Shown here in pieces: positions 14,784 through 63,811 of a stretch of 64,000 bases of DNA. The notes beneath the pieces were generated by a model. It saw only the letters and a program-made list of their open reading frames with translations. It had not been told where the DNA came from and did no database searches. A program made the position numbers and the translations under genes. The number at the start of each line of letters is the position of its first letter. The stretch's first letter is position 1. This DNA is from Candidatus Omnitrophota bacterium. GTDB lineage: Bacteria; Omnitrophota; Gorgyraeia; Duberdicusellales; 4484-171. Where the stretch lies: positions 239-64,238 of the forward strand of contig JAAEQW010000150.1 of the NCBI GenBank assembly GCA_024231025.1. Reading direction: 5' to 3'.

Positions 14784-14829
14784 GAGCAGTCATTGATAAT
14801 TAGATTAGTAATGGATTGAGCCGCTAGCT
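14784..14829. repeat. 46-bp perfect direct repeat, copy 2; runs into the intact tRNA-Lys
   Basis: Identical to 14627-14672. Confidence 0.8.
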
Positions 14830-14893
14830 CAGTTGGCAGAGCACCGCCCTTTTAAGGCGGGTGTCCCGGGTTCGAGCCTCGGGCGGCTCACCA
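14818..14893 (+). tRNA. tRNA-Lys (anticodon TTT), CCA encoded
   Basis: Manual fold: 7-bp acceptor GAGCCGC/GCGGCTC, anticodon stem CCGCC/GGCGG, loop CTTTTAA, T-loop TTCGAGC. Confidence 0.85.
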
Positions 14894-14898
14894 TTTAA

Positions 14899-14980
14899 GC
14901 GGATGTGGCGGAATTGGCAGACGCGCTAGACTTAGGATCTAGTCTTTTACGAGGTGGGAGTTCAACTCTCCCCATCCGCA
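14899..14980 (+). tRNA. tRNA-Leu (anticodon TAG), type II with long variable arm, no encoded CCA
   Basis: Acceptor GCGGATG/CATCCGC, anticodon stem CTAGA/TCTAG, loop CTTAGGA. Confidence 0.85.
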
Positions 14981-15046
14981 TTTGAATTTTGAATCGGTTG
15001 TTTAGCAATTCATAATTCACAATTGATAATTCATAATTGAATATTC

Positions 15047-15123
15047 GCGGGCGTAGCTCAATCGGCTAGAGCGTCACGTTGCCAACGTGAAGGTTAGGGG
15101 TTCGATTCCCCCCGCCCGCTCCA
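15047..15123 (+). tRNA. tRNA-Gly (anticodon GCC), CCA encoded
   Basis: Acceptor GCGGGCG/CGCCCGC, anticodon stem TCACG/CGTGA, loop TTGCCAA, T-loop TTCGATT. Confidence 0.85.
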
Positions 15124-16907: not shown

Positions 16908-17161
16908 AAAGCCAAATTATAGTCAATAGTAACCATGGCTTGCATGCGCGTCCGGCAGCGGTTTTTGTTCAGATTGCCAATAAGTTTGATTCTAAAGTTT
17001 CTCTTGCTAAAGATGGCGAGTGTGTAGATGGCAAGTCAATAATTGCTATATTGAGTTTAGGAATAAATAGAGGGGCACAAGTTAGCTTGATCGCAGAAGG
17101 GCGAGACGCTAAAGAAACGGCAGATGAGTTAAGAAAATTTTTGGAGAGCAATAATGATTAA
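16883..17161 (+). CDS. ptsH: phosphocarrier protein HPr
   Basis: VNSNHGLHARPAAVFV, with the active-site His in the GLHARP context. Confidence 0.85.
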   Translation: MEKDMERIESQIIVNSNHGLHARPAAVFVQIANKFDSKVSLAKDGECVDGKSIIAILSLGINRGAQVSLIAEGRDAKETADELRKFLESNND

Positions 17162-18911
17162 TTTGCAAGGCGTTGCTGCTGCTGGTGGTATAGCAATTGG
17201 AAAAGTTTTCTATTTGGGAAAAGAAGAATTTGTGATACCTAAGCATAGAATAACGCATGAGGATATTTCTCGTGAAATATATCGGCTTGAAGAATCATTA
17301 ATTGATACTCGTCGAGAGATATCTTCTTTGCAGAAGAGAATTGCTAAAGAGTTTGGTTTTGATCATGCCAAGATTTTCGAAGCGCACCTTTTGGTTTTGG
17401 AAGACAGAGTCTTAATAGAAGATGTTATTCAGCAGATTAAAGATAAAAAAATAAATATCGAATATGCTTTTTCCCAGAGCATTAAGAAGTATGTAAATAT
17501 TTTGTTGAAACTCAATGATGATTATCTTCGTGAGCGCGTGATCGACATTGAAGATGTCTCGCGCAGAGTTATGAGCAAACTTCTAAAACAGAAGGAAGTT
17601 AATTTAAGAGATTTAGATGAAAAAGTTGTTGTAGTTTCTCATGATCTTCCACCATCTCAAACTGCTAATCTACCAAAAGAAAAGATTATGGGCTTTGTTA
17701 CCGATGTTGGTGGTCGCACCTCGCATACGGCAATTATCGCCAGAAGCCTTGGTATTCCAGCAGTAGTTGGCACCGAAGTCGCTACAAAAAACGTAAAGTC
17801 CGGAGATGTGATTATAATTGACGGTTCTCTTGGGCAAGTTTTTGTAAATCCGCCAGAGAAAATTATTCGCGAATATAAAGAAAAGCTAGTTAAGTATAAA
17901 AAAGAAATAGAGATTGCCCATGTGCCCCGAGCGTTGAAAGCTTGCACAAAAGATAAAAAAGAAATAGTAGTTTCAGCTAATGTAGAATTGCCAGAAGAGT
18001 TGCCTCTGGTTGTTCAATCTGGAGCAGAAGGGATCGGTCTTTATCGCACAGAATTTATCTTTTTAGGCCGTCGTGATTTGCCAACGGAAGACGAACAATA
18101 CAAGGCATATTTAACAGTAGCGAAAAAGGTGAAGCCTAATTCGGTAATTATTAGAACAATTGATATTGGCGGAGATAAATTTCTTTCTCGGCCGGAAGTT
18201 CCCGCTGAATTAAGTCCATTTTTAGGGTGGCGGGCAATAAGATTTTGCCTTGCACGCCCAGAGCTTTTTAAAACTCAACTTAGAGCGATCTTGCGAGCGT
18301 CAACTGAAAAAAATATAAAGGTTATGTTTCCAATGATTTCCGGTATCGAAGAGTTGCGTGAAGCCAAAAAGCTCTTAGAGGAATCTAAAAAGGAACTTAA
18401 GAAAGAAGGCAAGAAATTTGATGATAAAATCTCTGTTGGAACGATGATCGAGGTTCCCTCAGCGGCACTAACCGCAGATTCGTTAGCTCGCGAAAGCGAT
18501 TTTTTCAGCATTGGGACCAATGATTTAATACAATATTCTTTAGCGGTTGACCGTGCTAATGAAAAAGTGGCATATCTTTATGAGCCTGGTCATCCGGCAG
18601 TATTGCGATTGATAAAAAGTGTTATTGAAAGTGCGCATAAAAATAAAATATGGGTAGGTATGTGCGGTGAGATGGCGGGCGAACCTCTTTTTGCGTTTTT
18701 ACTTATAGGTTTTGGGTTGGATGAATTTAGTATGCCACCGCCTTGCGTTCCTAAGGTTAAAGAATTAATTAGAAACATCAAATTTAAAGATGTAGAGAAA
18801 ATATCCCAGAAAGTGATAGATCTTGCAACTGCTAGGGAAGTGGAAAAGTATTTACAGGAAGAAGCGCGAAAGATCTTAAAAGATGATTTTGAGCGCATTA
18901 TAATGCGATAA
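17154..18911 (+). CDS. ptsI: phosphoenolpyruvate-protein phosphotransferase (PTS enzyme I)
   Basis: GGRTSHTAIIARSLGIPAVVG phospho-His motif and a PEP-utilising C-terminal domain. Confidence 0.85.
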   Translation: MINLQGVAAAGGIAIGKVFYLGKEEFVIPKHRITHEDISREIYRLEESLIDTRREISSLQKRIAKEFGFDHAKIFEAHLLVLEDRVLIEDVIQQIKDKKINIEYAFSQSIKKYVNILLKLNDDYLRERVIDIEDVSRRVMSKLLKQKEVNLRDLDEKVVVVSHDLPPSQTANLPKEKIMGFVTDVGGRTSHTAIIARSLGIPAVVGTEVATKNVKSGDVIIIDGSLGQVFVNPPEKIIREYKEKLVKYKKEIEIAHVPRALKACTKDKKEIVVSANVELPEELPLVVQSGAEGIGLYRTEFIFLGRRDLPTEDEQYKAYLTVAKKVKPNSVIIRTIDIGGDKFLSRPEVPAELSPFLGWRAIRFCLARPELFKTQLRAILRASTEKNIKVMFPMISGIEELREAKKLLEESKKELKKEGKKFDDKISVGTMIEVPSAALTADSLARESDFFSIGTNDLIQYSLAVDRANEKVAYLYEPGHPAVLRLIKSVIESAHKNKIWVGMCGEMAGEPLFAFLLIGFGLDEFSMPPPCVPKVKELIRNIKFKDVEKISQKVIDLATAREVEKYLQEEARKILKDDFERIIMR

Positions 18912-42789: not shown

Positions 42790-42797
42790 TGAGAGTT

Positions 42798-42846
42798 ATA
42801 AGTCGTAAGTTGTAAGTTGTAAGTTGTAAGTTGTAAGTTGTAAGTT
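42798..42846. repeat. (GTAAGTT)n heptamer tandem repeat, 6 perfect units plus one degenerate
   Basis: cgtaagttgtaagttgtaagttgtaagttgtaagtt, located in the ribD-to-giant-gene intergenic region. Confidence 0.85.
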
Positions 42847-43054
42847 TGCCTGCCTGTCCGGCAGGTATTAGAAAACTTGAAATTTCAACTCATATGCACC
42901 GCGTAGGTGCGCATTGTTTTGTAAACTGTTGAGTGTGAGGTAGTTACCGACAGCGTCTCCTTGTGGTTATTTTTTGTAAATTGGGTTGACTTTTGCTTGT
43001 GGATATGTTACTTTTGTGTAAGCGCTTACAAAGCAATGTATGTTAAATACCTGG

Positions 43055-43093
43055 GGAGGCATTACTCAAATAGAGTAATGCCTCCCTTTTTTA
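43055..43093 (+). terminator. strong rho-independent terminator / leader hairpin (13-bp stem GGAGGCATTACTC, loop AAATA, CTTTTTT)
   Basis: A perfect 13-bp stem with a T-run, 55 nt upstream of the giant-gene ATG and 265 nt downstream of the ribD stop. Confidence 0.75.
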
Positions 43094-43148
43094 ATGTTTT
43101 AAAGGTGGCAATTGCAGTGATTTTGCTGCACAATTGAGGAGGTTTTCG

Positions 43149-46100
43149 ATGATACTATTTTTACAAAAGAGAAAAGCGTCGGTTCCATTCAAAGTTACAG
43201 TGTTTTTAGCAATGGGAATTTTTCTGCTGGGCACCTTTATGATGCAGACCAATAAAGTTCCTAAAGCATATGCTTCCGCCTTGCCGTATATGGCGGCACC
43301 GACCGAACTTATTGATACAACCGCAAATTTTAACCCGGTAGTTTTGCGCGGGATAAAATTTGATACCAACAATCCCTTTAAATTCAATTTTATTCTTGAT
43401 GAAGGCGATACTGCCCTTAGCGACGGCGAACTGAAAAAGGAAGTAGAAAAGATCGCTCGCCAATTTCTTGCGGCGATAACTGTTCCCGAAGAGGATTTAT
43501 GGGTTAACCTTTCTCCATTGGAAAAAGATAGAATTATTTCTGATGAGCTAAGCGTAACCGATATTGGACGTGACCTTTTAGGTGAAGATTACGTTCTAAA
43601 ACAATTAACTTCGTCTTTAACTTATCCGGAAAGTCCGCTTGGTAAAGAGTATTGGAAAAAGATTTACACTCGGACCCAAGAAATGTATGGCACAACTGAC
43701 GTGCCAATTAATACCTTTAACAAAGTTTGGATTACTCCTAAGCATGCGGTAATTTACGAAAATGCCCAAGGCGCATATATTGGTGAGAGCCATCTAAAGG
43801 TAATGTTGGAACAGGATTACCTTGCCCAAGAACAAAACATCGCAGGGGCACAGCGTGATGTGCCCTCTGAAAAACAAATCAATAATATTTCCGCCCAAAT
43901 AACCAAAGAAGTAATTTTGCCGGTAATCGAGAACGAAGTAAATTACGGGAAAAGCTTCTCGCATTTGCGTCAAATTTATCATTCGGTGCTTTTAGCCTCG
44001 TGGTTTAAAAAGAAACTAAAACAGACTATTCTTAATGATATCTACGTTGATAAGAAAAAGATTGCCGGAGTTGACACCAGCGACCCCCAGATTAAGGAAA
44101 AAGTATACAACCAATATTTAGAAGCTTACAAAAAAGGTGTCTATAATTATATTCGCCGTGATTCTGATTTTACCACAAAAAGAAAAGTTAATCGTCGTTA
44201 CTATTCTGGCGGAACTGATCTGGTGGTTGGCCCAACAACTACGACTAAGTCTGGTACCGATCCTTTGGCTCCAGGTGTTGGCGGGGCTTCAAAGGGTGAA
44301 GTAAGTGAGGCTGGAGTTACAACCGAAGGCATTGACAATAAACCTGGGCCGGATATGGCCGCTGCAGCGATTCCGCATGGTCGGACTAATAAGGGGATAT
44401 CAGGCGCAATCGAAGGTAATACTGTTACTCGTCAAAAGGCAAATGGAAGCTACGCAAAAGAGGTTTTTGATGCTGAGAAAGCGCCTAAAGACAGTTCGGT
44501 AATAACTAAGGCCGACGTGCGTGATGTTCCACAGTTAGCCGGATCAATTACCGAATTAATTCATAACTACAGAGACATAATTACTTTCGACCTTGATAGC
44601 GCAGGAAGAATGGTCAATGTTCAACTCCCCACGGACCTCACAGATAATCTTCGTATACTTGATTTAGCGCGTGAACTTTCAGTTGTTCAACCTGATCCGC
44701 AAGTGCGCCGCATGGCTTTTCATTTAGCTGCGGCAATTCAACGTGCGCGCGGAAAACTTTCTCCAAATGTTAGAAATGTATCGTTACTCCAGCCATTTAC
44801 CGATGGCGTTTTAAGAGGTATTCCGGCAGATAATTTACGCTGCGGTGGGGCGATGGAGCAAGCTGCTCTTGGGCGAGCAGCAGATAAAGCTAACGCGGTT
44901 ATTGCGGCTGAAATTGCCATGTCTGAGCTGATCTATTCTGGGCTTTTGGATTTATTTGATTTTGTTGGTCATGTATATCTTGGTGATGCTTTTGCTGGCC
45001 GTGATGCTTCAACTCCTACGCAGCTTGATCATCTTCAAGCTAAATTGTCAGAAATATTTGCTTTAGATAAGACGAAGGCTCTAATTGCAGCGGCGTCCGA
45101 TGAACTGTCGGTTGATGGTTACGAGGAGAAAATTTGGGCGAAAATGCCTCTTGTTGAACGCGAGAGTTCAGGGATGATTGATAAGGCGCGGCGAGAAGCA
45201 GAAATGCAGAAAATATTCGGCATACTTACCTTAGCCGCTGAAGCAGGAATTACCCATTTCGATATTGATTTTTCAACTCTGGCGGATCAAGTTCTAATGG
45301 AAGCCCTTTACCGAGGTGCGCACACTGATGATAATCCTAATGGTTTTAGTCCAAGCATGAAGATGCTAATCGATAAGATCAAGAGCTCTCCATCAATGGA
45401 AGTGGCGGTTGCATGGGTTAGAGATAAGGGTGAGGTTTCTGATGATAAGCTTTGGGAGTTGTATAGTCCCAAGCGTCAGGCAGCATCTGAGAAAATTCAG
45501 GTATTTAATGCCAAATTTAGCGCAAAGGCAATCGTCCACCAAAGAATAGAAGAGGCGAAAGCAATAAGGGCCGGATATTTACCGGAAGGGTTTCGTGCCC
45601 TTTCTGGTGTTGAAGATGCACATACTGATTTAAAGTTTCTTGAGAATAAACCGAGTGAGCCGGAATCAGTTGTTGCATTTTTGCTTATGTTGCGTCGTGA
45701 GTTATTAGAAGCGAATAAACAGTTTAAAGCAGATTACGGTTACGATTTACCTGAGTTAACCGCAATTAAATGGAGTCCGAAAACCGGAACTTCACATGGT
45801 ACCGCGGGGATAGAGGCCAATATCGGTGTTTTTGCGTTGGCGGAAAGGTATCTTGCCTTGCCGCAAGTGAAAGAAATCCTCGGCGGTGAGTTTGTCCTAA
45901 TAAGGGGTCAGCATGGAGCCTCTAAATGTACTACCGATCAGTACGCAGATATGGGTCGAAATGCTGAGGATATTCACTTTGCGACTGGAATAGCTAACAA
46001 ATTTTCCGGAACAATGGCCGAAGAATTTAACATAATGACCGATACTGTGGGGGATTTACTGCAGTTGCTTTTAAAGCCTGATCGAGCGAATATTACCGAT

Positions 46101-49100
46101 CGCCTTAACGCGTATTTAGAGGTTATTGGTAAGGATGCGGATTGGCTGATGGATTACGTTACGCTGCCTGGAGTTGAAGCCAAAATCAAAAGATTTCGTT
46201 CGGCTGAATTTGGCGGGAAAAATGATGCCCAAACAAAGTTTTTCAATATCTTAGCTAAGGAGGGCATAACTTCATATACTCTCGAAGGCCGCAGGAGACT
46301 TACCCATCTTATTCTTACCGACCCTGAGGAGGGTGTTCCTAGTGATGCAAGAAGTAAACTGAAAGATTTAGTAAAGCATGTTTACAGACCACTTTTACCC
46401 TACTTTCTTAGTATGCCGCAAGAATTACGGGATCCGGTTATGAACGCGGTGCAGGCCTGGATGGGAGACGCAATAAATGAGTTAGGTATTGCAGATAGTT
46501 TTGATAAGCTTGTACCATATTTACCTCAAGAACCTTTGGTTTTGCGCCCGATTCCTGCCGATTTTGTTGCGGAAGCTCAAGAAGCAGTGCAGCAAAGCTT
46601 GCCGCTGATTGAACAAATCGACAATGGATTTGCGCAAGCGAGAGAGGCTTTTGATGGTGGCGAATATCAGCTAGCATTTACCAGAGTCGATAAGGCAATA
46701 GAACTTTTGATGAGACCTGAAAAATTCGACGCAAAAGATGATCCGCTAACCGGCGTCAGTAACCCTAATGAAATTTTAAGTCTGTTAAATAGTTTAGGAT
46801 CAAAGCGCCAATTATATCCTCGTCAAGAAGACCTTCAGGGTTTTCTTCACGCAGGCATAAATGGGCTGGATTTGATTAATGGCTTAAGAAAGCTAAATGG
46901 TTTCAAGCTAATAATCGAAGAAGTCGACCCTCAAGACGTGCCGCTGATTGAACAAATCGATGGCTTGTTTGTCGAAGCGAAAAAAGCTCTTGCGAAGGGT
47001 GAGGATCAGTTAGCATATACCAAGGTCGAGGAGGCAACAACACTTTTGACACGGCCTCTCGATTTCGACACAAGTGATGATCCACTAACCGGCCTCAGTA
47101 ATCCCGATGAGGTTTTAAAACTATTAAATAGCTTAAAGCTTCAACGGTCTCGTCGTCAAAGCGCCCTTTGGCGCTTGCTTGGCCAACGTTTAAATGGATT
47201 GGATTTAATTAACGGGTTAAGGATGGCAATTGGTTTTGGGGTAATAACCGAAGAAGTCGATCCTCAAGACCTGCCGCTGACTAATAAACAAATAGACAGT
47301 TTTTTTGATAGAGCCGAAGAACATTCTAAACATGGAAGAGATTCCTATGCACTTAAAGAAATTGATAAGGCAATAGAACTTTTGAAATGGCCTGAAAAAT
47401 TTGATGCAAAGGGTAACCCGCTAGTCGGCATCAGTAACCCCGATGGAGTTCAACACCTATTAAGTGCGATAGAGACAGGAGGGTACACATTATCTTTTAG
47501 TGAGGAAGCTCTTAAACTTCTTCTTGATGAAGGTGCAAGCGGATTAGAATTAGTTAATGGTTTGAGAGAGATAGATAGGCTCGATCCAATAGCAAAAAAA
47601 GCTGACCCTCAAGATCTGCCGCTGATTGAACAAATCGACAATGGATTTACCGAAGCGAGAGAAGCTTTTGATAGTGGCGAATATCAGCTAGCATTTACCA
47701 GAGTCGATAAGGTAGCAGAACTTTTGAGACGGCCTTACGATTTTGACGTAAGTAATGATCCACTAACCGGCCTCAGTAACCCTAATGAAGTTTTGATGCT
47801 GTTAAATGATTTAGAATTAAATGTTGGATTATCGCATCGTCAAAAAGCGCTTAAGGATTTTATTGGTCAAGGTAGAAACGGATTGGACTTAATTAATTGC
47901 CTAAGAATGGCAGTTGGTTATGGGGTAATAATCGCGAAAGCTGGCAGCGCTGCTGCCAACGGGTCGGTTGTTTTAGAGAAGAAAAATAAGGTTGCAATTA
48001 ATGGCGGCGGCAGAATCGGCATGTTGAGTTTGCGCGTGTGGATTATGAAAAAAATGCACGGAGAGCCAACCGATCTTGATGTTGTAGCGATGAATGATTT
48101 GCAGTCACCCCAGCAGCTAGCTTACAAACTTAAGTACGATTCTAATCATGGAGAGCTTAAGGATGTTGGAATCGATGTGGTCGAAGAGGGAAATGATAAC
48201 TTTTTGGTTATCAATGCTGAAGGAATCAATAATCATAGAATTCAATTATTTTCAGAAAGAGATCCGACACAGCTGCCATGGGGACAACTAGGTATTGGTC
48301 AAGTGTGGGAGTGTACCGGAATATTTAGAGATAAAGAAGCGGCTGATTTGCATCGTCAAGCGGGAGCCAAAAAAGTTATTGTTAGCGCTCCGGGCAAAGG
48401 GCTTCCAACTATAGTTTTCGGAGTGAACCAAGGTATTTATGATCCAGCGAAGCATGACATAGTTTCGAACGCATCGTGCACAACCAATGATCTTGCTCCG
48501 GTGATTAAGGTCTTAAATGATACACTTGGAGTTCAGTCGGCAATGATGAATACAACGCATGCTACAACTAATGATCAGAAAGTAGGTGACGCTCCGCACA
48601 GCGATCCTTATCGATCAAGAGGCGCTATCGGTGCGATGATAATACCTACCATCACAGGGGCAGCTAAAACTACTGGCAAAGTAATACCTGAATTGGATGG
48701 AAAAATAGATGGAGCTTCACTTCGTATTCCTACTAAAACTGTTTCAGCGACGACGATAACAATCAATGTGAAAAAAGACACAACAGTAGCAGAAGTTAAC
48801 GCAATTTTAAAGGAAGCATCAGAGACTGAGGGATTAAAAGGTATTCTTGCTTATACCGATGAGAAAAAAGTTGGGGTGGATTTTCTTACTGATCCACATT
48901 CATCAACGGTTGCCGGAGACTTCACTAAAGTTGTTGTCGGTACGATGGTGCAAGTACTTTCTTGGTACGATAATGAATGGGGTTTTGCCAATCGCATGGT
49001 TGATCTTGGTGAGCATATGGCAGATGCCGATTTCGCCTTTGCTGAGAAAGAAATTGTGCAGGAGACAGCGCATGATACATTTGTAAAAAATGAATTAAAG

Positions 49101-50723
49101 TATCTTCGTCGGAAAGGTGGAGAAATTGAACAGGCGGCTGAGGCAGCGGACCTATCGCGTATTGCTACGGCGTTGAATCGTAGCGAAAAGGATCTCAAAA
49201 ACGCGGCGCTATATGTTGCTAAGTTTATTGATATCTTAACCGTAGAGGGCAGGCTGGCAATTGGTGAGGGATTACCTTTCTTGCACGCGCGCAAAGGTAT
49301 ATTTGATCTTTTTTATAGATGGAATCTTTCAGAATCAGCAATTACAACTGGTATTCAGCTCTTTCTTCATAAGGAAATCACATCCGAGCAGCGCGGTCGA
49401 GCGATATTTCACGATGCTTTGCATGTTGTTGTTCCAAAGTCGCTGCGCCACCCCACAGAAGAAGAAATAGAAAATGGTGCGGTAGATCCTTTCCCGACAG
49501 ATCAGGACATTAAAGATCACCTTGTTGAACTTTCTAAAAATTTAGGAGAAAAACCACCAACCAGCACCGGCGCTTACGACATGGCGGCTGCGCAATCAAG
49601 CCAGCTGAATTTGGAAGAAACTACTTGTCAAGGTGGCAATTGGAAGAGGCATCTTGAGAACAGAAAAGAGGCTAAAGAAAAAATAGACCGTTTTGAAAAA
49701 AAGTTCAGAAATGGAATACCTGAAGGAGCATGGGCGGGTATTGCGGTGCAAAATGAGTATGTTGCGATGGCAGGCGCAGCATGGAAAGATTCTGCTCTTG
49801 AAGCTGGTGTCCAATCAATATTCTTTAGAGTGGAAGAAAATCAGGAAAATGTTGTGAGGTATTTGAAGCGGCGGATTCAAGAAGCAGTAGATGCTGGTGC
49901 AACTTGGGCCAATATTGCCCATTCAATACATCGAGCAATGGGTAAAGGATTAACCGATCTTGATGCCAATATCTTAATGCATGCCATACTTAATGATGGT
50001 CGTTTAATGCCTTGGTACACTGTTGAAGTATCTGACGGAGGTGATGTAAACGGAAGAACCACTCAACAAGAAATAGATGACGCGGTAAATATTGGTTTAG
50101 CCGGTATTACTGCAGAGCAGCTATTGGGCGTTCCGATTACTATTGAACCAACCAGAGACATTAGCACTCCAGCTGAAGGTAAAGCAGTTAATCTTGTTGA
50201 GTTGGATACAGAAAAGATTAAAAAAAGAGTTGATATGCTACGTTTAGCTTTAATTGTAAAATACGGTGATATTGCCAGGCGTTTTAATGTTGGTTATGGG
50301 GCTAGTATCGCCAGAAAAAACGCGCGAGCAATCTTTAGCATTCCTGGTGTCAACAATGGTTTAGCTGGTGGAGAAAGTCAAAATGAAGATGTATTCATGG
50401 AAGTAATAGAGAAGGCTCAGCAGGGAGTTGAAGACTTGGCTCTTTATCAGGCAGAGGATATTGGCGAGATTAATGAAACAGATTCTTCCGATGAGCAAGA
50501 GGATTATAATGCAGCAGAGAGATCGTTTGGTGGAATTAATTTAGATGGTGAAATTGACCTGCGCGGTGATGGACAATTTAACATCGACCTTTATGATATT
50601 CCTTTTGACATTAAGACTTTTAAAGGGTTGGCACCTTTGGTAAGCAAGATGAAGCGTGATCAGGACCCGAAGAGTTTCTTTGCGTCAAAGCAACCGCAAC
50701 AAGAACTCTCTTACGCGCATTAA
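43149..50723 (+). CDS. giant exported multidomain protein (2,524 aa): signal peptide, N-domain, G/T/P linker, unknown region with weak class-II-aldolase-like segment, 4 x ~112-aa repeats, GAPDH homologue, linker, triosephosphate-isomerase homologue, acidic tail
   Basis: Uninterrupted ORF; GAGGAGG sits 6 nt before the ATG at 43149. The N-terminal h-region is VTVFLAMGIFLLGTFMM with a predicted cleavage site AYA|SA. GAPDH motifs: KVAINGGGRIG, KYDSNHGE, AGAKKVIVSAPGK, SNASCTTNDLAP, TTHATT, IIPTITGAAK, SWYDNEWGF. TPI motifs: GNWKRH, AGATWANIAHSIHR, IEP, GYGAS-x21-GGES. Terminators flank both ends. Confidence 0.8.
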   Translation: MILFLQKRKASVPFKVTVFLAMGIFLLGTFMMQTNKVPKAYASALPYMAAPTELIDTTANFNPVVLRGIKFDTNNPFKFNFILDEGDTALSDGELKKEVEKIARQFLAAITVPEEDLWVNLSPLEKDRIISDELSVTDIGRDLLGEDYVLKQLTSSLTYPESPLGKEYWKKIYTRTQEMYGTTDVPINTFNKVWITPKHAVIYENAQGAYIGESHLKVMLEQDYLAQEQNIAGAQRDVPSEKQINNISAQITKEVILPVIENEVNYGKSFSHLRQIYHSVLLASWFKKKLKQTILNDIYVDKKKIAGVDTSDPQIKEKVYNQYLEAYKKGVYNYIRRDSDFTTKRKVNRRYYSGGTDLVVGPTTTTKSGTDPLAPGVGGASKGEVSEAGVTTEGIDNKPGPDMAAAAIPHGRTNKGISGAIEGNTVTRQKANGSYAKEVFDAEKAPKDSSVITKADVRDVPQLAGSITELIHNYRDIITFDLDSAGRMVNVQLPTDLTDNLRILDLARELSVVQPDPQVRRMAFHLAAAIQRARGKLSPNVRNVSLLQPFTDGVLRGIPADNLRCGGAMEQAALGRAADKANAVIAAEIAMSELIYSGLLDLFDFVGHVYLGDAFAGRDASTPTQLDHLQAKLSEIFALDKTKALIAAASDELSVDGYEEKIWAKMPLVERESSGMIDKARREAEMQKIFGILTLAAEAGITHFDIDFSTLADQVLMEALYRGAHTDDNPNGFSPSMKMLIDKIKSSPSMEVAVAWVRDKGEVSDDKLWELYSPKRQAASEKIQVFNAKFSAKAIVHQRIEEAKAIRAGYLPEGFRALSGVEDAHTDLKFLENKPSEPESVVAFLLMLRRELLEANKQFKADYGYDLPELTAIKWSPKTGTSHGTAGIEANIGVFALAERYLALPQVKEILGGEFVLIRGQHGASKCTTDQYADMGRNAEDIHFATGIANKFSGTMAEEFNIMTDTVGDLLQLLLKPDRANITDRLNAYLEVIGKDADWLMDYVTLPGVEAKIKRFRSAEFGGKNDAQTKFFNILAKEGITSYTLEGRRRLTHLILTDPEEGVPSDARSKLKDLVKHVYRPLLPYFLSMPQELRDPVMNAVQAWMGDAINELGIADSFDKLVPYLPQEPLVLRPIPADFVAEAQEAVQQSLPLIEQIDNGFAQAREAFDGGEYQLAFTRVDKAIELLMRPEKFDAKDDPLTGVSNPNEILSLLNSLGSKRQLYPRQEDLQGFLHAGINGLDLINGLRKLNGFKLIIEEVDPQDVPLIEQIDGLFVEAKKALAKGEDQLAYTKVEEATTLLTRPLDFDTSDDPLTGLSNPDEVLKLLNSLKLQRSRRQSALWRLLGQRLNGLDLINGLRMAIGFGVITEEVDPQDLPLTNKQIDSFFDRAEEHSKHGRDSYALKEIDKAIELLKWPEKFDAKGNPLVGISNPDGVQHLLSAIETGGYTLSFSEEALKLLLDEGASGLELVNGLREIDRLDPIAKKADPQDLPLIEQIDNGFTEAREAFDSGEYQLAFTRVDKVAELLRRPYDFDVSNDPLTGLSNPNEVLMLLNDLELNVGLSHRQKALKDFIGQGRNGLDLINCLRMAVGYGVIIAKAGSAAANGSVVLEKKNKVAINGGGRIGMLSLRVWIMKKMHGEPTDLDVVAMNDLQSPQQLAYKLKYDSNHGELKDVGIDVVEEGNDNFLVINAEGINNHRIQLFSERDPTQLPWGQLGIGQVWECTGIFRDKEAADLHRQAGAKKVIVSAPGKGLPTIVFGVNQGIYDPAKHDIVSNASCTTNDLAPVIKVLNDTLGVQSAMMNTTHATTNDQKVGDAPHSDPYRSRGAIGAMIIPTITGAAKTTGKVIPELDGKIDGASLRIPTKTVSATTITINVKKDTTVAEVNAILKEASETEGLKGILAYTDEKKVGVDFLTDPHSSTVAGDFTKVVVGTMVQVLSWYDNEWGFANRMVDLGEHMADADFAFAEKEIVQETAHDTFVKNELKYLRRKGGEIEQAAEAADLSRIATALNRSEKDLKNAALYVAKFIDILTVEGRLAIGEGLPFLHARKGIFDLFYRWNLSESAITTGIQLFLHKEITSEQRGRAIFHDALHVVVPKSLRHPTEEEIENGAVDPFPTDQDIKDHLVELSKNLGEKPPTSTGAYDMAAAQSSQLNLEETTCQGGNWKRHLENRKEAKEKIDRFEKKFRNGIPEGAWAGIAVQNEYVAMAGAAWKDSALEAGVQSIFFRVEENQENVVRYLKRRIQEAVDAGATWANIAHSIHRAMGKGLTDLDANILMHAILNDGRLMPWYTVEVSDGGDVNGRTTQQEIDDAVNIGLAGITAEQLLGVPITIEPTRDISTPAEGKAVNLVELDTEKIKKRVDMLRLALIVKYGDIARRFNVGYGASIARKNARAIFSIPGVNNGLAGGESQNEDVFMEVIEKAQQGVEDLALYQAEDIGEINETDSSDEQEDYNAAERSFGGINLDGEIDLRGDGQFNIDLYDIPFDIKTFKGLAPLVSKMKRDQDPKSFFASKQPQQELSYAH

Positions 50724-50753
50724 ATAAGTCTCGCGCATAAATTAGAATTACAA

Positions 50754-50785
50754 ACGGGAAGGCCTTCGCCTTCCCGTTTTGTGTT
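50754..50785 (+). terminator. rho-independent terminator (GGGAAGGC-CTTC-GCCTTCCC + GTTTTGTGTT)
   Basis: An 8-bp GC-rich stem and U tract 30 nt after the giant-gene stop. Confidence 0.8.
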
Positions 50786-50932: not shown

Positions 50933-51250
50933 ATGCCTAATCATATTTACGCCATTGCTATAATCAAAAATAATATCATAAAGGGCCGACAGCCATCGGC
51001 CCCTACGGATAAAATTAATCAAAAACAATTATTATCATCATTCGTCGCCGGTTTTAAATCCGTGGCAGCAAAACGTATCAACACCTTACGTAATACACCA
51101 GGAAATCCTATTTGGCAACGTAATTATTATGACCATATTATTCGTGATGATAAATCTTTGCAGAAAATTCGCGAATACATTACCGGCAATCCGGTTATGT
51201 GGGATACCGACGAAAATAATATTATTAATCACAATAGGAGGCAGATATGA
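50933..51250 (+). mobile_element. truncated REP-associated tyrosine transposase (RAYT / IS200-like Y1 transposase) remnant, C-terminal ~2/3 only
   Basis: Carries the C-terminal block NPIWQRNYYDHIIRDDKSLQKIREYITGNPVMW. A degenerate HuH site reads HIYAIAI where a histidine-x-histidine pair would be expected. The N-terminal beta-strand region is missing. A REP-like hairpin lies inside its 5' end and another lies upstream. Confidence 0.5.
50982..51006. repeat. REP-like hairpin, reverse-complement copy (AGGGCCGACAGCCATCGGCCCCTAC)
   Basis: Exact reverse complement of 50810-50834. It is embedded in the 5' end of the RAYT-remnant ORF, encoding KGRQPSAPT. Confidence 0.6.
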
Positions 51251-51435: not shown

Positions 51436-51550
51436 GCGGATATTCAGTATTTACATATTTTCAGTTGCATTGACAATCTGTAAAAACAAAATTGCACCTA
51501 AAATCTAACAGTTGCAAAAATGCTATATTTGTGAGTATAATACTACTGCT

Positions 51551-51898
51551 ATGGAAAAACAAAGAAAACTAATAAGGCTTGATACAGATGATTTCCTAGA
51601 AATAAGATTGCTGGATGATTCCGTTAAAAGTAAGGGCAGCAGTAAGAATATTACTTCGATGGGGATATGTTTTTCGTCTGAAAACAATTGGCAAAAGGAT
51701 CAAATTCTTTTGATTAATTATTTTCTTCCCGATGAATTAGATTCAGTTAAACTGAAAGTTGTGGTTGTTTGGTCTGAATTCATTGATCCGGAAAGTGGTT
51801 ATTTTTGCGGAGGCGAGATAACCGAAATTGAAGAAGGCAAAGAAGACCAATTCGCACACTATTACCTGCAACAATTGAAAGATAGATTTTGTAAATAG
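51551..51898 (+). CDS. PilZ-like c-di-GMP-binding domain protein (tentative)
   Basis: QRKLIR (RxxxR-like) and NITSMG (D/NxSxxG-like) motifs spaced as in PilZ domains. Confidence 0.35.
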   Translation: MEKQRKLIRLDTDDFLEIRLLDDSVKSKGSSKNITSMGICFSSENNWQKDQILLINYFLPDELDSVKLKVVVVWSEFIDPESGYFCGGEITEIEEGKEDQFAHYYLQQLKDRFCK

Positions 51899-61915: not shown

Positions 61916-63811
61916 ATGATTACAGAAAATAAGTTAGGTTTATGGGATGTTTTTTGCATGGCAACCGGGGCGATGATCTCTTCTGGTTTGTTTGTCTTGC
62001 CTGCGCTTGCCTACCGTTATGGTGGGCCATCAATAGTGATTTCTTATGTCCTTGCCGGTGTACTGGTGCTTCCGTCGGTGTTAAGTAAGGCTGAATTGAT
62101 TTCAGCAATGCCGAAAGCAGGAGGAACGTATTTTTTTATTGAACGTAGTTTTGGGCCGATTTCCGGAACATTTAGCGGTTTTGCTAATTGGTTTTCAATA
62201 AGTTTAAAAGGTGCTTTTGCTTTAGTTGGTATGGGTGCTTTTTTGGAATATTTCTTTCCTAACGTGAGCTATATGGAGATAAAGATTGCCGCGGCAATTT
62301 TTTGTGTATTCTTTATGTTAATCAACGTTTACAGCGTTAAAGCAAGCTTACGTGTTAACAATCTCATGGTAGTCTTTTTGCTTGGTGTTTGTGCTCTTTA
62401 TGTGGTGGGAAGCTTTATTGTTCTAAGCGGCAAAATGATTCCCTATGAGCACATTAGTCCGTTTATGCCCGGAGGATTAAAAGGCATTCTCTCTGTTGCA
62501 GGGATGGTTTTTATTTCTTATGGTGGTCTTACCAAAATTGCAACCATCGCTGAAGAAGTGAATAAGCCTTCAAAAACCATACCAAAAGCGATGTTTATTT
62601 CTTTTTTCGTAGTTCAAACTATATATGTACTTTGTGTTATTGTAACGATTGGTCTTTTATCTCCAAAAGAGCTAGGTTCAACGCTTATTCCTTTAACCCA
62701 TGGTGGTTTAAAAATGGGAGGAATGTTGTTTGGGGGATTTCTTTCGTTGGCGGCACTGGTCGCTTTTATAACGACAGCAAATGCCGGTATTGTTTCTTCG
62801 TCGCGTGTACCTTTAGCAATGGCTAAAGATGGTCTTTTGCCCAGCAGGTTTTCAACGGTTTCTTCTAAGCGGGGAGTACCGTATTTTTCTATCATAGTAA
62901 CTGGATTTTTTATGCTTACCTTGATTTTATTTCTAGATTTAGACAGCTTGGTTAAGACGGCTTCGACTTTGATGATAATTCTTTTTATGTATGTTAATCT
63001 TTCAGTAATCATTATGCGTGAGAGCAAAATCATAAATTATCGGCCACTCTTTCGTGCGCCACTTTATCCGTGGTTGCAAATAATTGCGATTATTGCCTAT
63101 GGTTTTCTGATTTATGAAATGGGTTATATTCCGCTTTTGATTGCCGCTATCTTTATTGGTTTAAGTCTTCTTTGGAATCTTTTTTATGTACGTAATAGAA
63201 TTAAGCGTCAATCTGCCTTGATGCATTTGGTGGAAAGAGTTACTGCTAAAGAATTTGTTGATACATCATTGGAAGAGGAGTTAAAAAAGATTCTTCACAA
63301 GCGTGACAATGTAATTAAGGATCGTTTTGATAGTTTGATTGAGAATTGTCCAGTGTTGGATATTGAAGAGTCAATGGAGCGCGATGAATTTTTCGACATC
63401 ATTTCGGATCTTCTCGCTAAAGAATTCGATATTAAGCCAGCGAAAATTAAAAAATTACTGATAGCAAGAGAAGAAGAGTCGCATACGGTTATTGATAAGG
63501 GATTAGCTATACCGCATATAGTTATTCCTGGTAAGGGCAAATTTGAAGTTATTGTTGTTCGTGCGCAAAAAGGAATAATTTTTTCTGTTGATGAGGAACC
63601 TGTTAATATAATTTTTGTCTTAGCCGGAAGTCACGATGAACGTAATTTCCATTTGCGTTCTTTGATGGCTATTGCCAACATCGTGAAAGAACCACATTTT
63701 TATAAGCAGTTTACTGGTGCGCGCAACGATGAAACCCTTCGGATTTTGATTCTGTCGTCAACAAGGAAGCGGCACAAAAATGTTTTTAATCTACATAAAA
63801 AGAGAAAATAA
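61916..63811 (+). CDS. APC-family amino-acid permease fused to a C-terminal PTS EIIA type-2 (Ntr-like) regulatory domain
   Basis: About 12 TM helices. The ~150-aa C-terminal domain carries GLAIPH (phosphorylatable His) and PVNIIFVLAGSHDE blocks, paralleling PtsN at 15177. Confidence 0.7.
   Translation: MITENKLGLWDVFCMATGAMISSGLFVLPALAYRYGGPSIVISYVLAGVLVLPSVLSKAELISAMPKAGGTYFFIERSFGPISGTFSGFANWFSISLKGAFALVGMGAFLEYFFPNVSYMEIKIAAAIFCVFFMLINVYSVKASLRVNNLMVVFLLGVCALYVVGSFIVLSGKMIPYEHISPFMPGGLKGILSVAGMVFISYGGLTKIATIAEEVNKPSKTIPKAMFISFFVVQTIYVLCVIVTIGLLSPKELGSTLIPLTHGGLKMGGMLFGGFLSLAALVAFITTANAGIVSSSRVPLAMAKDGLLPSRFSTVSSKRGVPYFSIIVTGFFMLTLILFLDLDSLVKTASTLMIILFMYVNLSVIIMRESKIINYRPLFRAPLYPWLQIIAIIAYGFLIYEMGYIPLLIAAIFIGLSLLWNLFYVRNRIKRQSALMHLVERVTAKEFVDTSLEEELKKILHKRDNVIKDRFDSLIENCPVLDIEESMERDEFFDIISDLLAKEFDIKPAKIKKLLIAREEESHTVIDKGLAIPHIVIPGKGKFEVIVVRAQKGIIFSVDEEPVNIIFVLAGSHDERNFHLRSLMAIANIVKEPHFYKQFTGARNDETLRILILSSTRKRHKNVFNLHKKRK

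Follow-up and report, generated by a model that had tools for sequence, protein, structure and literature searches.

Introduction

Omnitrophota are widespread, uncultured nanobacteria, and the giant multi-enzyme proteins that they encode are an open puzzle. Domains of triosephosphate isomerase (TPI, also known as TIM), phosphoglucose isomerase (PGI), fructose-bisphosphatase (FBPase), PGM and fructose-bisphosphate aldolase (FBA) occur in the ‘Archaeovorins’, Omnitrophota proteins of more than 30,000 amino acids (30 kAA) (West-Roberts et al. 2023, bioRxiv 10.1101/2023.11.21.568195), and a 2026 preprint describes ‘class 1 multi-enzyme metabolic clusters’, giants that start at 10 kAA (bioRxiv 10.64898/2026.06.07.730766). 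Both preprints describe domains of cytoplasmic type that are predicted to be extracellular, which is left unexplained, in proteins that are too large (10,000–147,000 residues) for experiments. Here we analyse a gene that lies in a 64,000-nucleotide stretch (the window) of contig JAAEQW010000150.1, from a Candidatus Omnitrophota genome. Its product, referred to as the query, poses this paradox in a chain of 280 kDa that has one signal peptide, two terminal domains (the N-cap and C-cap) and three enzymes of one metabolic node.

Fusions of TPI with glyceraldehyde-3-phosphate dehydrogenase (GAPDH) that carry mitochondrial targeting signals are known from eukaryotes (Nakayama et al. 2012, PMC3527533). 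In the query, GAPDH and TIM are accompanied by an aldolase-type barrel. On the observed domain identities, intact catalytic residues, family architecture and recurrence of the trio in paralogues we base the reading that the protein is a Sec-exported, cap-sorted carrier with an active, tethered triose-phosphate module that works outside the cytoplasm of its producer, and we hold this with moderate confidence, as a statement about as apt to be right as wrong.

Domain organisation of the query protein

The chain is made up of a Sec-type signal peptide, the N-cap, a low-complexity linker, the aldolase-type barrel, four tandem repeats, GAPDH, a domain referred to as link2, TIM and the C-cap (Table 1). 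Much of this had been anticipated by a first-pass annotation made from the letters and open reading frames (ORFs) of the window. It recognised the embedded GAPDH and TIM, which have intact catalytic residues, and predicted them at residues ~1614–1955 and ~2162–2425, nearly residue for residue where Pfam places them. It also described a signal-peptide-like N-terminus, borne out by a K/R n-region, a hydrophobic stretch at 14–32 and AYA-S at 40–43, and the four ~112-residue repeats, found at 1150–1598 with 37–61% identity. What it missed were the third enzyme and the family-defining termini: its ‘~700 aa of unknown fold’ proved to be a barrel of the class II aldolase superfamily, its ‘~300-aa unknown domain’ is the conserved N-cap, its ‘~200-aa linker’ (1960–2160) is a domain reused in paralogues, and the ‘acidic tail’ ends in the conserved C-cap.

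The GAPDH module is a canonical type I enzyme by sequence. Pfam finds Gp_dh_N (PF00044) at 1614–1729 (E 1.7e-22; 80.1 bits, threshold 31.7) and Gp_dh_C (PF02800) at 1782–1940 (E 1.2e-48; 165.1 bits, threshold 24.4), the score against the NCBIfam equivalog TIGR01534 (352.9 bits) lies just under the cut-off of 367.2, and the nearest PDB relatives are ordinary GAPDHs (E ~1e-90). Alignment to 3gnq and free GAPDHs reveals that the NAD site (GxGxxG at 1619–1624 in the INGGGRIG loop, and the NAD-specificity Asp1650 in AMNDL), catalytic Cys1777 (SNASCTTN) and His1804 (TTHATTNDQ), phosphate-site Arg1859 (LRIPT) and the WYDNEWG motif are all kept. With 50–53% identity to free type I GAPDHs of many phyla, including one from Omnitrophota, the module looks like no relic but an enzyme in good preservation.

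The TIM module is divergent. PF00121 matches residues 2163–2422 with E 1.1e-8 and 35.4 bits in the full protein (threshold 20.1), and with E 7.5e-11 and 42.4 bits when the segment is scanned alone. Aligned to 7n8u and 5ibx, it keeps the catalytic Asn and Lys (GGNWK, 2162–2166), His (AHS, 2257–2259) and Glu (IEP, 2332–2334), as well as the phosphate-binding YGxS (YGAS) and GG (AGGES) motifs.

Two further elements separate the enzymes. The repeat module is reused in paralogues P0006, P0009, P0046 and P0058, and link2 in P0005 (two copies), P0006 and P0058; neither has a match in Pfam, NCBIfam, PHROGs or PADLOC, and the four repeats are inferred to be a spacer or scaffold. The Gly/Thr/Pro/Ser linker is not conserved among paralogues.

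GAPDH and TIM normally function as homo-oligomers, and free domains would assemble into oligomers more easily. The chain could thus be imagined as a polyprotein precursor, a vehicle for synthesis and export that is cut in its linkers into free aldolase, GAPDH, TIM and caps, an idea to which the low-complexity linker after the N-cap lends itself and which resembles the proteolytic processing proposed for the larger giants by West-Roberts et al. (10.1101/2023.11.21.568195). We regard it as improbable: neither a protease nor a self-cleaving domain turned up in Pfam scans of the query, the modules were not seen to be separated by a conserved cleavage motif, and the spacers are structured, reused domains rather than disordered linkers. 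It would be compatible with export of a cap-sorted carrier, and the two are not strictly exclusive.

The aldolase-type barrel

The region between the linker and the repeats has no Pfam (including PF01116 and PF08013) or NCBIfam match, and among 1.84 billion representative proteins it has just three relatives. It aligns over ~580 residues with a region of paralogue P0002 that carries a borderline match to PF01116, class II FBA (25.2 bits; gathering threshold 25.5). Five homologues share the invariant motifs PAxN, S-E, Q-x-D-H and D-x-D-x-S-T, together with TGTxHG, QHG(A/T)S and H(L/F)AT; motifs in the query are IPADN (558–562), LDH (626–628), HFDIDFS (703–709), TGTSHG (879–884), QHGAS (921–925) and IHFAT (942–946). 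LDH, which aligns with ADH of P0002, is invariant in the five homologues; ‘THFDID’, initially a candidate for the aldolase Asp-His motif, was rejected on this alignment, HFDIDFS being a separate conserved motif.

A profile of the barrel family reached one sequence in the PDB, the class II tagatose-bisphosphate aldolase AgaY (1gvf), and in this weak match (E 0.2) TGTSHG and QHGAS align on the metal ligands H180 and H208. A phmmer search of the middle region against the PDB gave only a spurious match to the ATP-synthase b’ coiled coil. Structure models were built on shallow alignments (22 and 5 sequences); the structures closest to the barrel model are GatZ (2fiq, score 16.8), the YdjI aldolase (6ofu, 16.5), FBA of M. 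tuberculosis (3ekl, 16.4), a putative FBA (3pm6, 15.2), a tagatose 4-epimerase (9kct, 14.6), FBA of T. aquaticus (1rv8, 14.2) and UxaE (6il9, 13.7). Foldseek, run independently, placed two tagatose 4-epimerases and GatZ at its top ranks (E 1.4e-4 to 1e-2), and since this ranking agrees with the structure comparison, the model-based assignment of the middle region to the class II (metal-dependent) aldolase-superfamily fold appears solid.

A cap-defined family in Omnitrophota

The query signal peptide is predicted to be cleaved before S43, and its h-region is the only hydrophobic segment in the chain. The N-cap that follows is marked by the motifs WVNLSPxE, GxDxLxxDYxLKQ, TFNKVWxxP, ExDY, ExNxGxxFxxLRQ and RxYxGG, and has no match in Pfam, NCBIfam, PHROGs or PADLOC and no fold match in the PDB. 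It recurs at ~50% identity in more than 1,600 proteins, almost all from Omnitrophota. The 119 best homologues are 1.4–4.4 kAA long, those with a named source are all from Omnitrophota, and what they have in common is only query residues ~40–370, always at their own N-terminus. Species-representative genomes hold more than 582 N-cap loci, and a genome has several of them; records that carry a name come from Omnitrophota or from metagenome-assembled genomes (MAGs) with placeholder labels, plus one probably misbinned contig. This contig (L078, DYOU01000064.1, 6.3 kb) comes from a MAG labelled Candidatus Elulimicrobium (Patescibacteria group) and in all likelihood belongs to Omnitrophota and was misbinned; were it genuine, the N-cap would occur outside the phylum here alone.

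An in-frame stop lies 22–119 codons before the N-cap in 80 of 80 loci examined. The stretch just ahead of the N-cap has the look of a textbook Sec signal peptide. Among members with an intact N-terminus, the n-region is net-positive in 107 of 108, a hydrophobic core is present in 107 of 108 and a small-residue (−3, −1) site in all 108, the commonest +1 residue being Gln.

At the other end of the chain, the C-cap (~70–85 residues) forms the extreme C-terminus in 113 of 120 members, with the consensus GGIDLNP..L.LQ...GF.PVIINI.P.TNLP.LLG. Neither the canonical nor the query C-cap has an NCBIfam or Pfam match at E ≤ 10, and PHROGs and PADLOC hold nothing similar either. A homologue search with a 72-residue canonical C-cap returned short gene fragments from tiny contigs only, and is uninformative on C-cap distribution. 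The subtypes of the two caps co-vary, ‘P-T-x-L-I’ N-caps occurring with ‘PFDIxxFxGFxFxII’ C-caps and ‘P-G-x-M’ N-caps with ‘PVIINI’ C-caps, which could reflect an interaction of N-cap with C-cap or simply shared descent.

Together these features suggest a family of modular carriers, essentially restricted to Omnitrophota, that consist of signal peptide, N-cap, linker, variable enzyme cargo and C-cap. With its predicted signal peptide directly before a ~330-residue N-cap, and its C-terminal C-cap, the query carries both features that define membership. As domains found at hundreds of loci and without known relatives, the caps offer a concrete handle on where and how Omnitrophota place such enzymes. 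Two members, P0008 and P0013, also contain an intein splicing domain (PF14890) in the precomputed Pfam list.

Cargo and recurrence of the triose-phosphate trio

The aldolase/GAPDH/TIM set is found, whole or in part, in at least four other family proteins. Pfam scans give the order after the N-cap as TIM, class I FBA and GAPDH in P0003; TIM, GAPDH and class I FBA in P0028; TIM, GAPDH and a DeoC-type aldolase in P0077; and GAPDH and class II FBA-like in P0002; in the query it is class II aldolase-like, GAPDH and TIM. The different orders and the three non-homologous aldolase types indicate that the combination was assembled several times. The catalytic residues examined (GAPDH Cys, His and Arg; TIM His and Glu) are kept in every paralogous module, even where identity to the query falls to ~25%. 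Repeated assembly with kept catalytic residues suggests that triose-phosphate chemistry is what has been selected, and, among sequence-based arguments, the repeated assembly of the trio is good evidence for such selection and the strongest available.

This speaks against a role confined to adhesion or structure. The signal peptide, the repeats and the large size of the query are adhesin-like, giant Omnitrophota ORFs have been proposed to be adhesins (PMC10066038), and in a non-catalytic surface scaffold the glycolytic folds would serve as binding modules, like the moonlighting surface GAPDH, enolase and TPI of pathogens. Such an adhesin, which the first-pass annotation had put forward, is now disfavoured and seems to us very doubtful: every catalytic, cofactor-binding or phosphate-binding residue checked is kept, even in the ~25%-identical paralogues, building the same trio several times with non-homologous aldolases makes sense for chemistry only, and the query GAPDH is as conserved relative to free enzymes as free enzymes of different phyla are among themselves.

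The first-pass annotation had taken the embedding of GAPDH and TPI in one exported chain to be unprecedented, a view overtaken by the 2023 and 2026 Omnitrophota giants, the eukaryotic TPI-GAPDH fusions and the paralogues above. Aldolase and TIM are paired in this way beyond the cap family as well: in P0122 (1,321 residues, from a metagenome), which lacks the N-cap, a signal peptide precedes the rare aldolase-like domain of the query, and TIM-like motifs come next.

Other cargo in the family includes phosphoglycerate kinase (PGK), enolase, PGI, FBPase, PGM, and isocitrate lyase with malate synthase. PGK-like modules, 27–36% identical to free Omnitrophota PGK, directly follow the N-cap in four further species (L079, L051, L023 and L044). 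Frequent cargo domains are M48 peptidase with UbiB kinase, HEAT repeats, histidine-kinase ATPase, GNAT and methyltransferase, as well as protein kinase/PP2C, radical SAM, DEAD helicase, MutS and helix-turn-helix (HTH) domains. Genes for giants of the family type also lie close together: 5.6 kb 3’ of the P0077 gene stands another such ORF (L081 22929–27293), over 2,400 residues long and with a weak PGI match, and a 2,224-residue ORF (L082 1556–8230; ARMT1-like, methyltransferase, PRK and His_Phos_1) lies directly 5’ of the P0003 gene.

Another Omnitrophota MAG has a free gap-pgk-tpi-secG operon, which suggests that the fused gap and tpi copies are probably additional ones. The window itself contains no free-standing gap, tpi, pgk or fba.

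Proposed working and location

If all three modules are catalytically active, as their sequences suggest, the barrel would cleave a ketohexose bisphosphate (most simply fructose-1,6-bisphosphate) into two triose phosphates, which TIM and GAPDH would carry on to 1,3-bisphosphoglycerate, or the chain would run in reverse; tethering would hold the aldolase-type, GAPDH and TIM activities together. The signal peptide would route the chain through SecYEG and then be removed, so that the module would act in the periplasm, at the cell surface or host contact zone, or within a host cell, with N-cap and C-cap as sorting, anchoring or delivery parts common to all cargo types. Likely substrates would be sugar phosphates and cofactors from a host or prey, which would suit the host-dependent or predatory way of life that has been suggested for Omnitrophota (Seymour et al. 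2023, PMC10066038; West-Roberts et al. 2023, 10.1101/2023.11.21.568195).

Export is consistent with the tripartite (n-h-c) features and A-x-A-type site found in 107–108 of 108 members, with the single hydrophobic segment of the query, and with a diderm organism whose lpxB and HtrA-type periplasmic protease are encoded in the same window. Several points weigh on the other side. The signal-peptide calls were made by sequence rules applied by hand and a crude script. A sorting role for the caps is pure inference given that neither has recognisable relatives, the query C-cap is a degenerate copy of the variant ‘PFDIxxFxGF’ subtype, and no secretion or sorting genes were seen adjoining the giant gene. 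The enzymology is also less than certain: loop 6 of TIM is altered (PTRDISTP in place of the canonical PVWAIGTG, a subtype common to paralogue P0004), and the best scores against the NCBIfam TIM equivalogs are 18.9–20 bits, with cut-offs of 293–509. The barrel may, on its model, be an epimerase instead of an aldolase for FBP, because it is structurally nearest to the GatZ/tagatose-4-epimerase branch; aldol cleavage and C4 epimerisation are mechanistically related reactions. Finally, GAPDH needs NAD+ and phosphate, and the kinase, radical SAM, DEAD helicase, MutS and HTH cargo of paralogues needs ATP, S-adenosylmethionine (SAM), Fe-S clusters and nucleic acids. Such cofactors are not expected in the periplasm or outside the cell, and thus fit poorly with a simple surface or periplasmic role.

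The cofactor supply problem, which the preprints on the larger giants have also run into, keeps two alternatives alive, namely a membrane-tethered cytoplasmic metabolon and delivery into the host cytoplasm. In the former, an uncleaved N-terminal anchor would hold the cargo on the cytoplasmic face of the inner membrane, where it would channel the cell’s own glycolytic or gluconeogenic triose-phosphate flux, with caps that serve assembly or anchoring and not export. Nearly all family cargo is of cytoplasmic type and dependent on ATP, NAD, SAM or Fe-S, and the giant gene sits amid housekeeping genes; furthermore, the 2026 preprint interprets about half of the proteins of ≥10 kAA in its catalogue as anchored in the inner membrane, with their enzymes in the cytoplasm (10.64898/2026.06.07.730766), and West-Roberts et al. 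doubt their own extracellular prediction for glycolytic domains (10.1101/2023.11.21.568195). We nevertheless judge this arrangement unlikely. By the positive-inside rule the N-terminus is cytoplasmic and all that lies beyond the helix is outside, 108 of 108 members have a canonical A-x-A site for cleavage between helix and N-cap, frequently followed by Gln as the +1 residue, the query has no second hydrophobic segment that could return the chain inside, and the free gap-pgk-tpi operon in the phylum makes the fused copies look like extras.

In the second alternative, which is possible though we advance it tentatively and with low confidence, the caps would be parts of a new, phylum-wide sorting or delivery system that moves blocks of central metabolism into a host or prey cell or a sealed contact compartment. 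Its users would be ultra-small, host-dependent Omnitrophota, whose enzymes would draw their cofactors from the host and divert its carbon and energy to the parasite; the cargo would comprise aldolase-TPI-GAPDH, PGK, enolase, PGI, the glyoxylate shunt, kinases, phosphatases, and acetyl- and methyl-transferases. The closest precedent for such delivery is Chlamydia (PVC group), which secretes glycogen-metabolism enzymes into its inclusion.

Gene structure and genomic context

The gene is an uninterrupted plus-strand ORF, listed as 43134–50723 from a TTG; the ATG start at 43149 gives 2,524 residues. The product is deposited as MCP4652550.1 (locus tag GY858_04105, ‘hypothetical protein’, Candidatus Omnitrophica MAG). 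One terminator-like hairpin lies ~60 nucleotides before the start codon and the other ~30 nucleotides past the gene end, and as both are strong and followed by U-runs, the gene is most simply monocistronic. The first-pass annotation had likewise described a single monocistronic ORF of 7,575 nucleotides between strong terminators, and this stands, given the ORF at 43149–50723, its ribosome-binding site and hairpins of −27.8 and −22.2 kcal/mol. The upstream hairpin is most simply the terminator of the preceding ribD operon, and may alternatively act as a leader or attenuator; no Rfam family was found in the leader, the sole Rfam matches in the 64-kb window being three tRNAs.

Table 1. Features of the giant gene and its product, with positions in the window.
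Feature	Residues	Position	Strand	Remarks
Coding sequence		43149..50723	+	2,524 residues plus stop; NCBI MCP4652550.1
Sec-type signal peptide	1–42	43149..43274	+	n-region QKRK..K, h-region 14–32, c-region AYA; predicted
N-cap	~43–365	43275..44243	+	~330 residues; family-defining conserved domain
Low-complexity linker	~366–469	44244..44555	+	Gly/Thr/Pro/Ser-rich, 36% G+T+P+S
Class II aldolase-superfamily (beta/alpha)8 barrel	~470–1150	44556..46598	+	large helical insertions, ~680 residues
Four tandem ~112-residue repeats	1150–1262, 1264–1373, 1375–1488, 1490–1598	46596..47942	+	
Type I GAPDH module	~1612–1960	47982..49028	+	Pfam and PDB alignment
link2 domain	~1961–2160	49029..49628	+	common to paralogues
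Divergent TIM module	~2161–2425	49629..50423	+	Pfam and PDB alignment
C-cap	~2440–2524	50466..50720	+	jackhmmer domain; FGGINLD...IPFDIKTFKGL...ELSYAH
Ribosome-binding site GAGGAGG		43136..43142	+	6 nucleotides 5’ of ATG; read directly from sequence
Upstream terminator-like hairpin		43053..43087	+	15-bp stem plus U-run; dG −27.8 kcal/mol, z −7.0
Downstream terminator-like hairpin		50752..50779	+	12-bp stem plus U-run; dG −22.2 kcal/mol, z −5.2

The exact MCP4652550.1 sequence is on record from one contig only, of 65 kb, and GC is slightly higher within the gene (0.42–0.44 in the stretch 44000–50000) than in the flanking housekeeping genes (0.36–0.40), as might be seen if separate genes had been mis-joined in the MAG. 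The higher GC could also stem from amino-acid composition or from acquisition from another Omnitrophota lineage. An assembly chimera is, however, scarcely credible: one unbroken 7.6-kb frame has the N-cap at its start and the C-cap at its end, the ribosome-binding site and terminators bracket it, and equivalent architectures, for which the first-pass annotation had proposed a metagenome search, do occur in independent NCBI, ENA and JGI assemblies, with P0077 on four contigs.

The window belongs to the core chromosome of a diderm and encodes lpxB, an MsbA-like ABC exporter and an HtrA-type protease, alongside PEPCK, ptsI, recA, alaS, lepA, rpsB, rplM and rpsI, as well as his, rib and aromatic amino-acid genes. 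Upstream, a seemingly perfect tandem heptamer, (AGTTGTA) x 7.6, lies between ribD and the giant gene at 42794–42846, 5’ of the hairpin. Downstream are an AddAB-like helicase-nuclease pair, an HD protein and a cyclophilin. A small ORF just 3’ of the gene (50933–51250) weakly resembles IS200/Y1 transposases (E 5e-4, short of the gathering score) and may be a transposase remnant. It is followed by a weak PilZ-domain ORF (51512–51898), and two PilZ genes (L081 17439–18419) come after the trio-bearing P0077 gene; conserved synteny was considered and rejected, as the PilZ proteins are without pairwise similarity and their adjacency is thus probably coincidental. Elsewhere in the window are a 419-residue ORF at its opening (29–1288) with no Pfam match at E ≤ 1e-5, a tRNA cluster at 14818–15123 (tRNA-Lys(UUU), tRNA-Leu(UAG) and tRNA-Gly(GCC)), and a 631-residue ORF (61916–63811) that fuses an amino-acid permease to EIIA(2) of the phosphotransferase system (PTS), ptsI itself lying at 17154–18911.

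Comparison with known systems

The closest described relatives are the Archaeovorins and class 1 giants, which like the query are from Omnitrophota, have an N-terminal signal peptide and carry many normally cytoplasmic enzymes per chain. They also include methyltransferase, NUDIX, HEAT, HATPase and radical SAM domains, and have a predicted extracytoplasmic location that their authors call puzzling. They differ in scale, with 10,000–147,000 residues, tens to more than 100 transmembrane helices and, in some, C39 or S8 peptidase N-termini, whereas the query has 2,524 residues, a single hydrophobic segment and no peptidase, and lies far below the 10,000 residues (30,000 in the 2023 paper) that delimit those groups. 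GAPDH modules in fused proteins, this size class and the N-cap and C-cap are not described in either preprint, and the word ‘glyceraldehyde’ does not occur in the text of either; GAPDH appears once in the 2026 preprint, as KO (KEGG Orthology) K00134, in all 176 complete genomes (10.64898/2026.06.07.730766). A J. Biol. Chem. paper on Omnitrophica ‘fusion proteins’ was considered as precedent and set aside, since it concerns small SpeD fusions.

The eukaryotic TPI-GAPDH fusions resemble the query in placing both enzymes behind an N-terminal targeting signal, which moves part of glycolysis to another compartment. In them, TPI is directly N-terminal to GAPDH in a protein of ~600 residues with no aldolase; the query instead has GAPDH, a 200-residue domain and then TIM, a bacterial Sec peptide, and an added aldolase-type barrel and caps. 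The two are clearly of independent origin. The bifunctional PGK/TIM of Thermotoga and relatives (NF010569) is likewise a bacterial fusion of TIM to a neighbouring glycolytic enzyme, but is a cytoplasmic two-domain protein with no signal peptide and no caps, and the query TIM matches its model weakly (36 bits, cut-off 883). With the class II aldolase superfamily (FBA and tagatose-bisphosphate aldolase, PF01116; GatZ/KbaZ; tagatose 4-epimerase/UxaE) the query barrel has the fold and, tentatively, the metal-ligand histidine motifs in common, and differs in its ~680-residue length, its large helical insertions and the lack of a Pfam match of its own.

Multifunctional autoprocessing repeats-in-toxin (MARTX) and polymorphic toxins have conserved termini around variable, shuffled enzymatic modules, with several paralogues per genome. 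The query family resembles them in this layout, as a functional analogy only: Pfam finds no RTX repeats, cysteine protease domain or toxin domains in the query, which also has no type I secretion signal, bears metabolic cargo and is predicted to be Sec-dependent. Cargo of the type IX secretion system (T9SS) has a Sec signal, often with Gln at +1, a C-terminal sorting domain of ~80 residues, and no conserved N-terminal cap. The N-terminal Sec signal, frequent Gln at +1 and ~70–80-residue domain at the extreme C-terminus of the query family are similar; the family differs in a C-cap without a match to curated sorting-domain models, in belonging to another phylum with no T9SS genes seen, and in its N-cap.

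Glycolytic domains in larger Omnitrophota giants were already noted in 2023, and in this respect the query is not categorically new. What is new is a compact, tractable member with a three-enzyme module, and a cap-defined family that is absent from the open-access papers and bioRxiv preprints searched. If its enzymes do work outside the producer’s cytoplasm, they would represent a new mode of metabolic interaction between parasite or predator and host. The query is small enough to be expressed and dissected, and could therefore serve as a tractable model for the far larger Archaeovorins.

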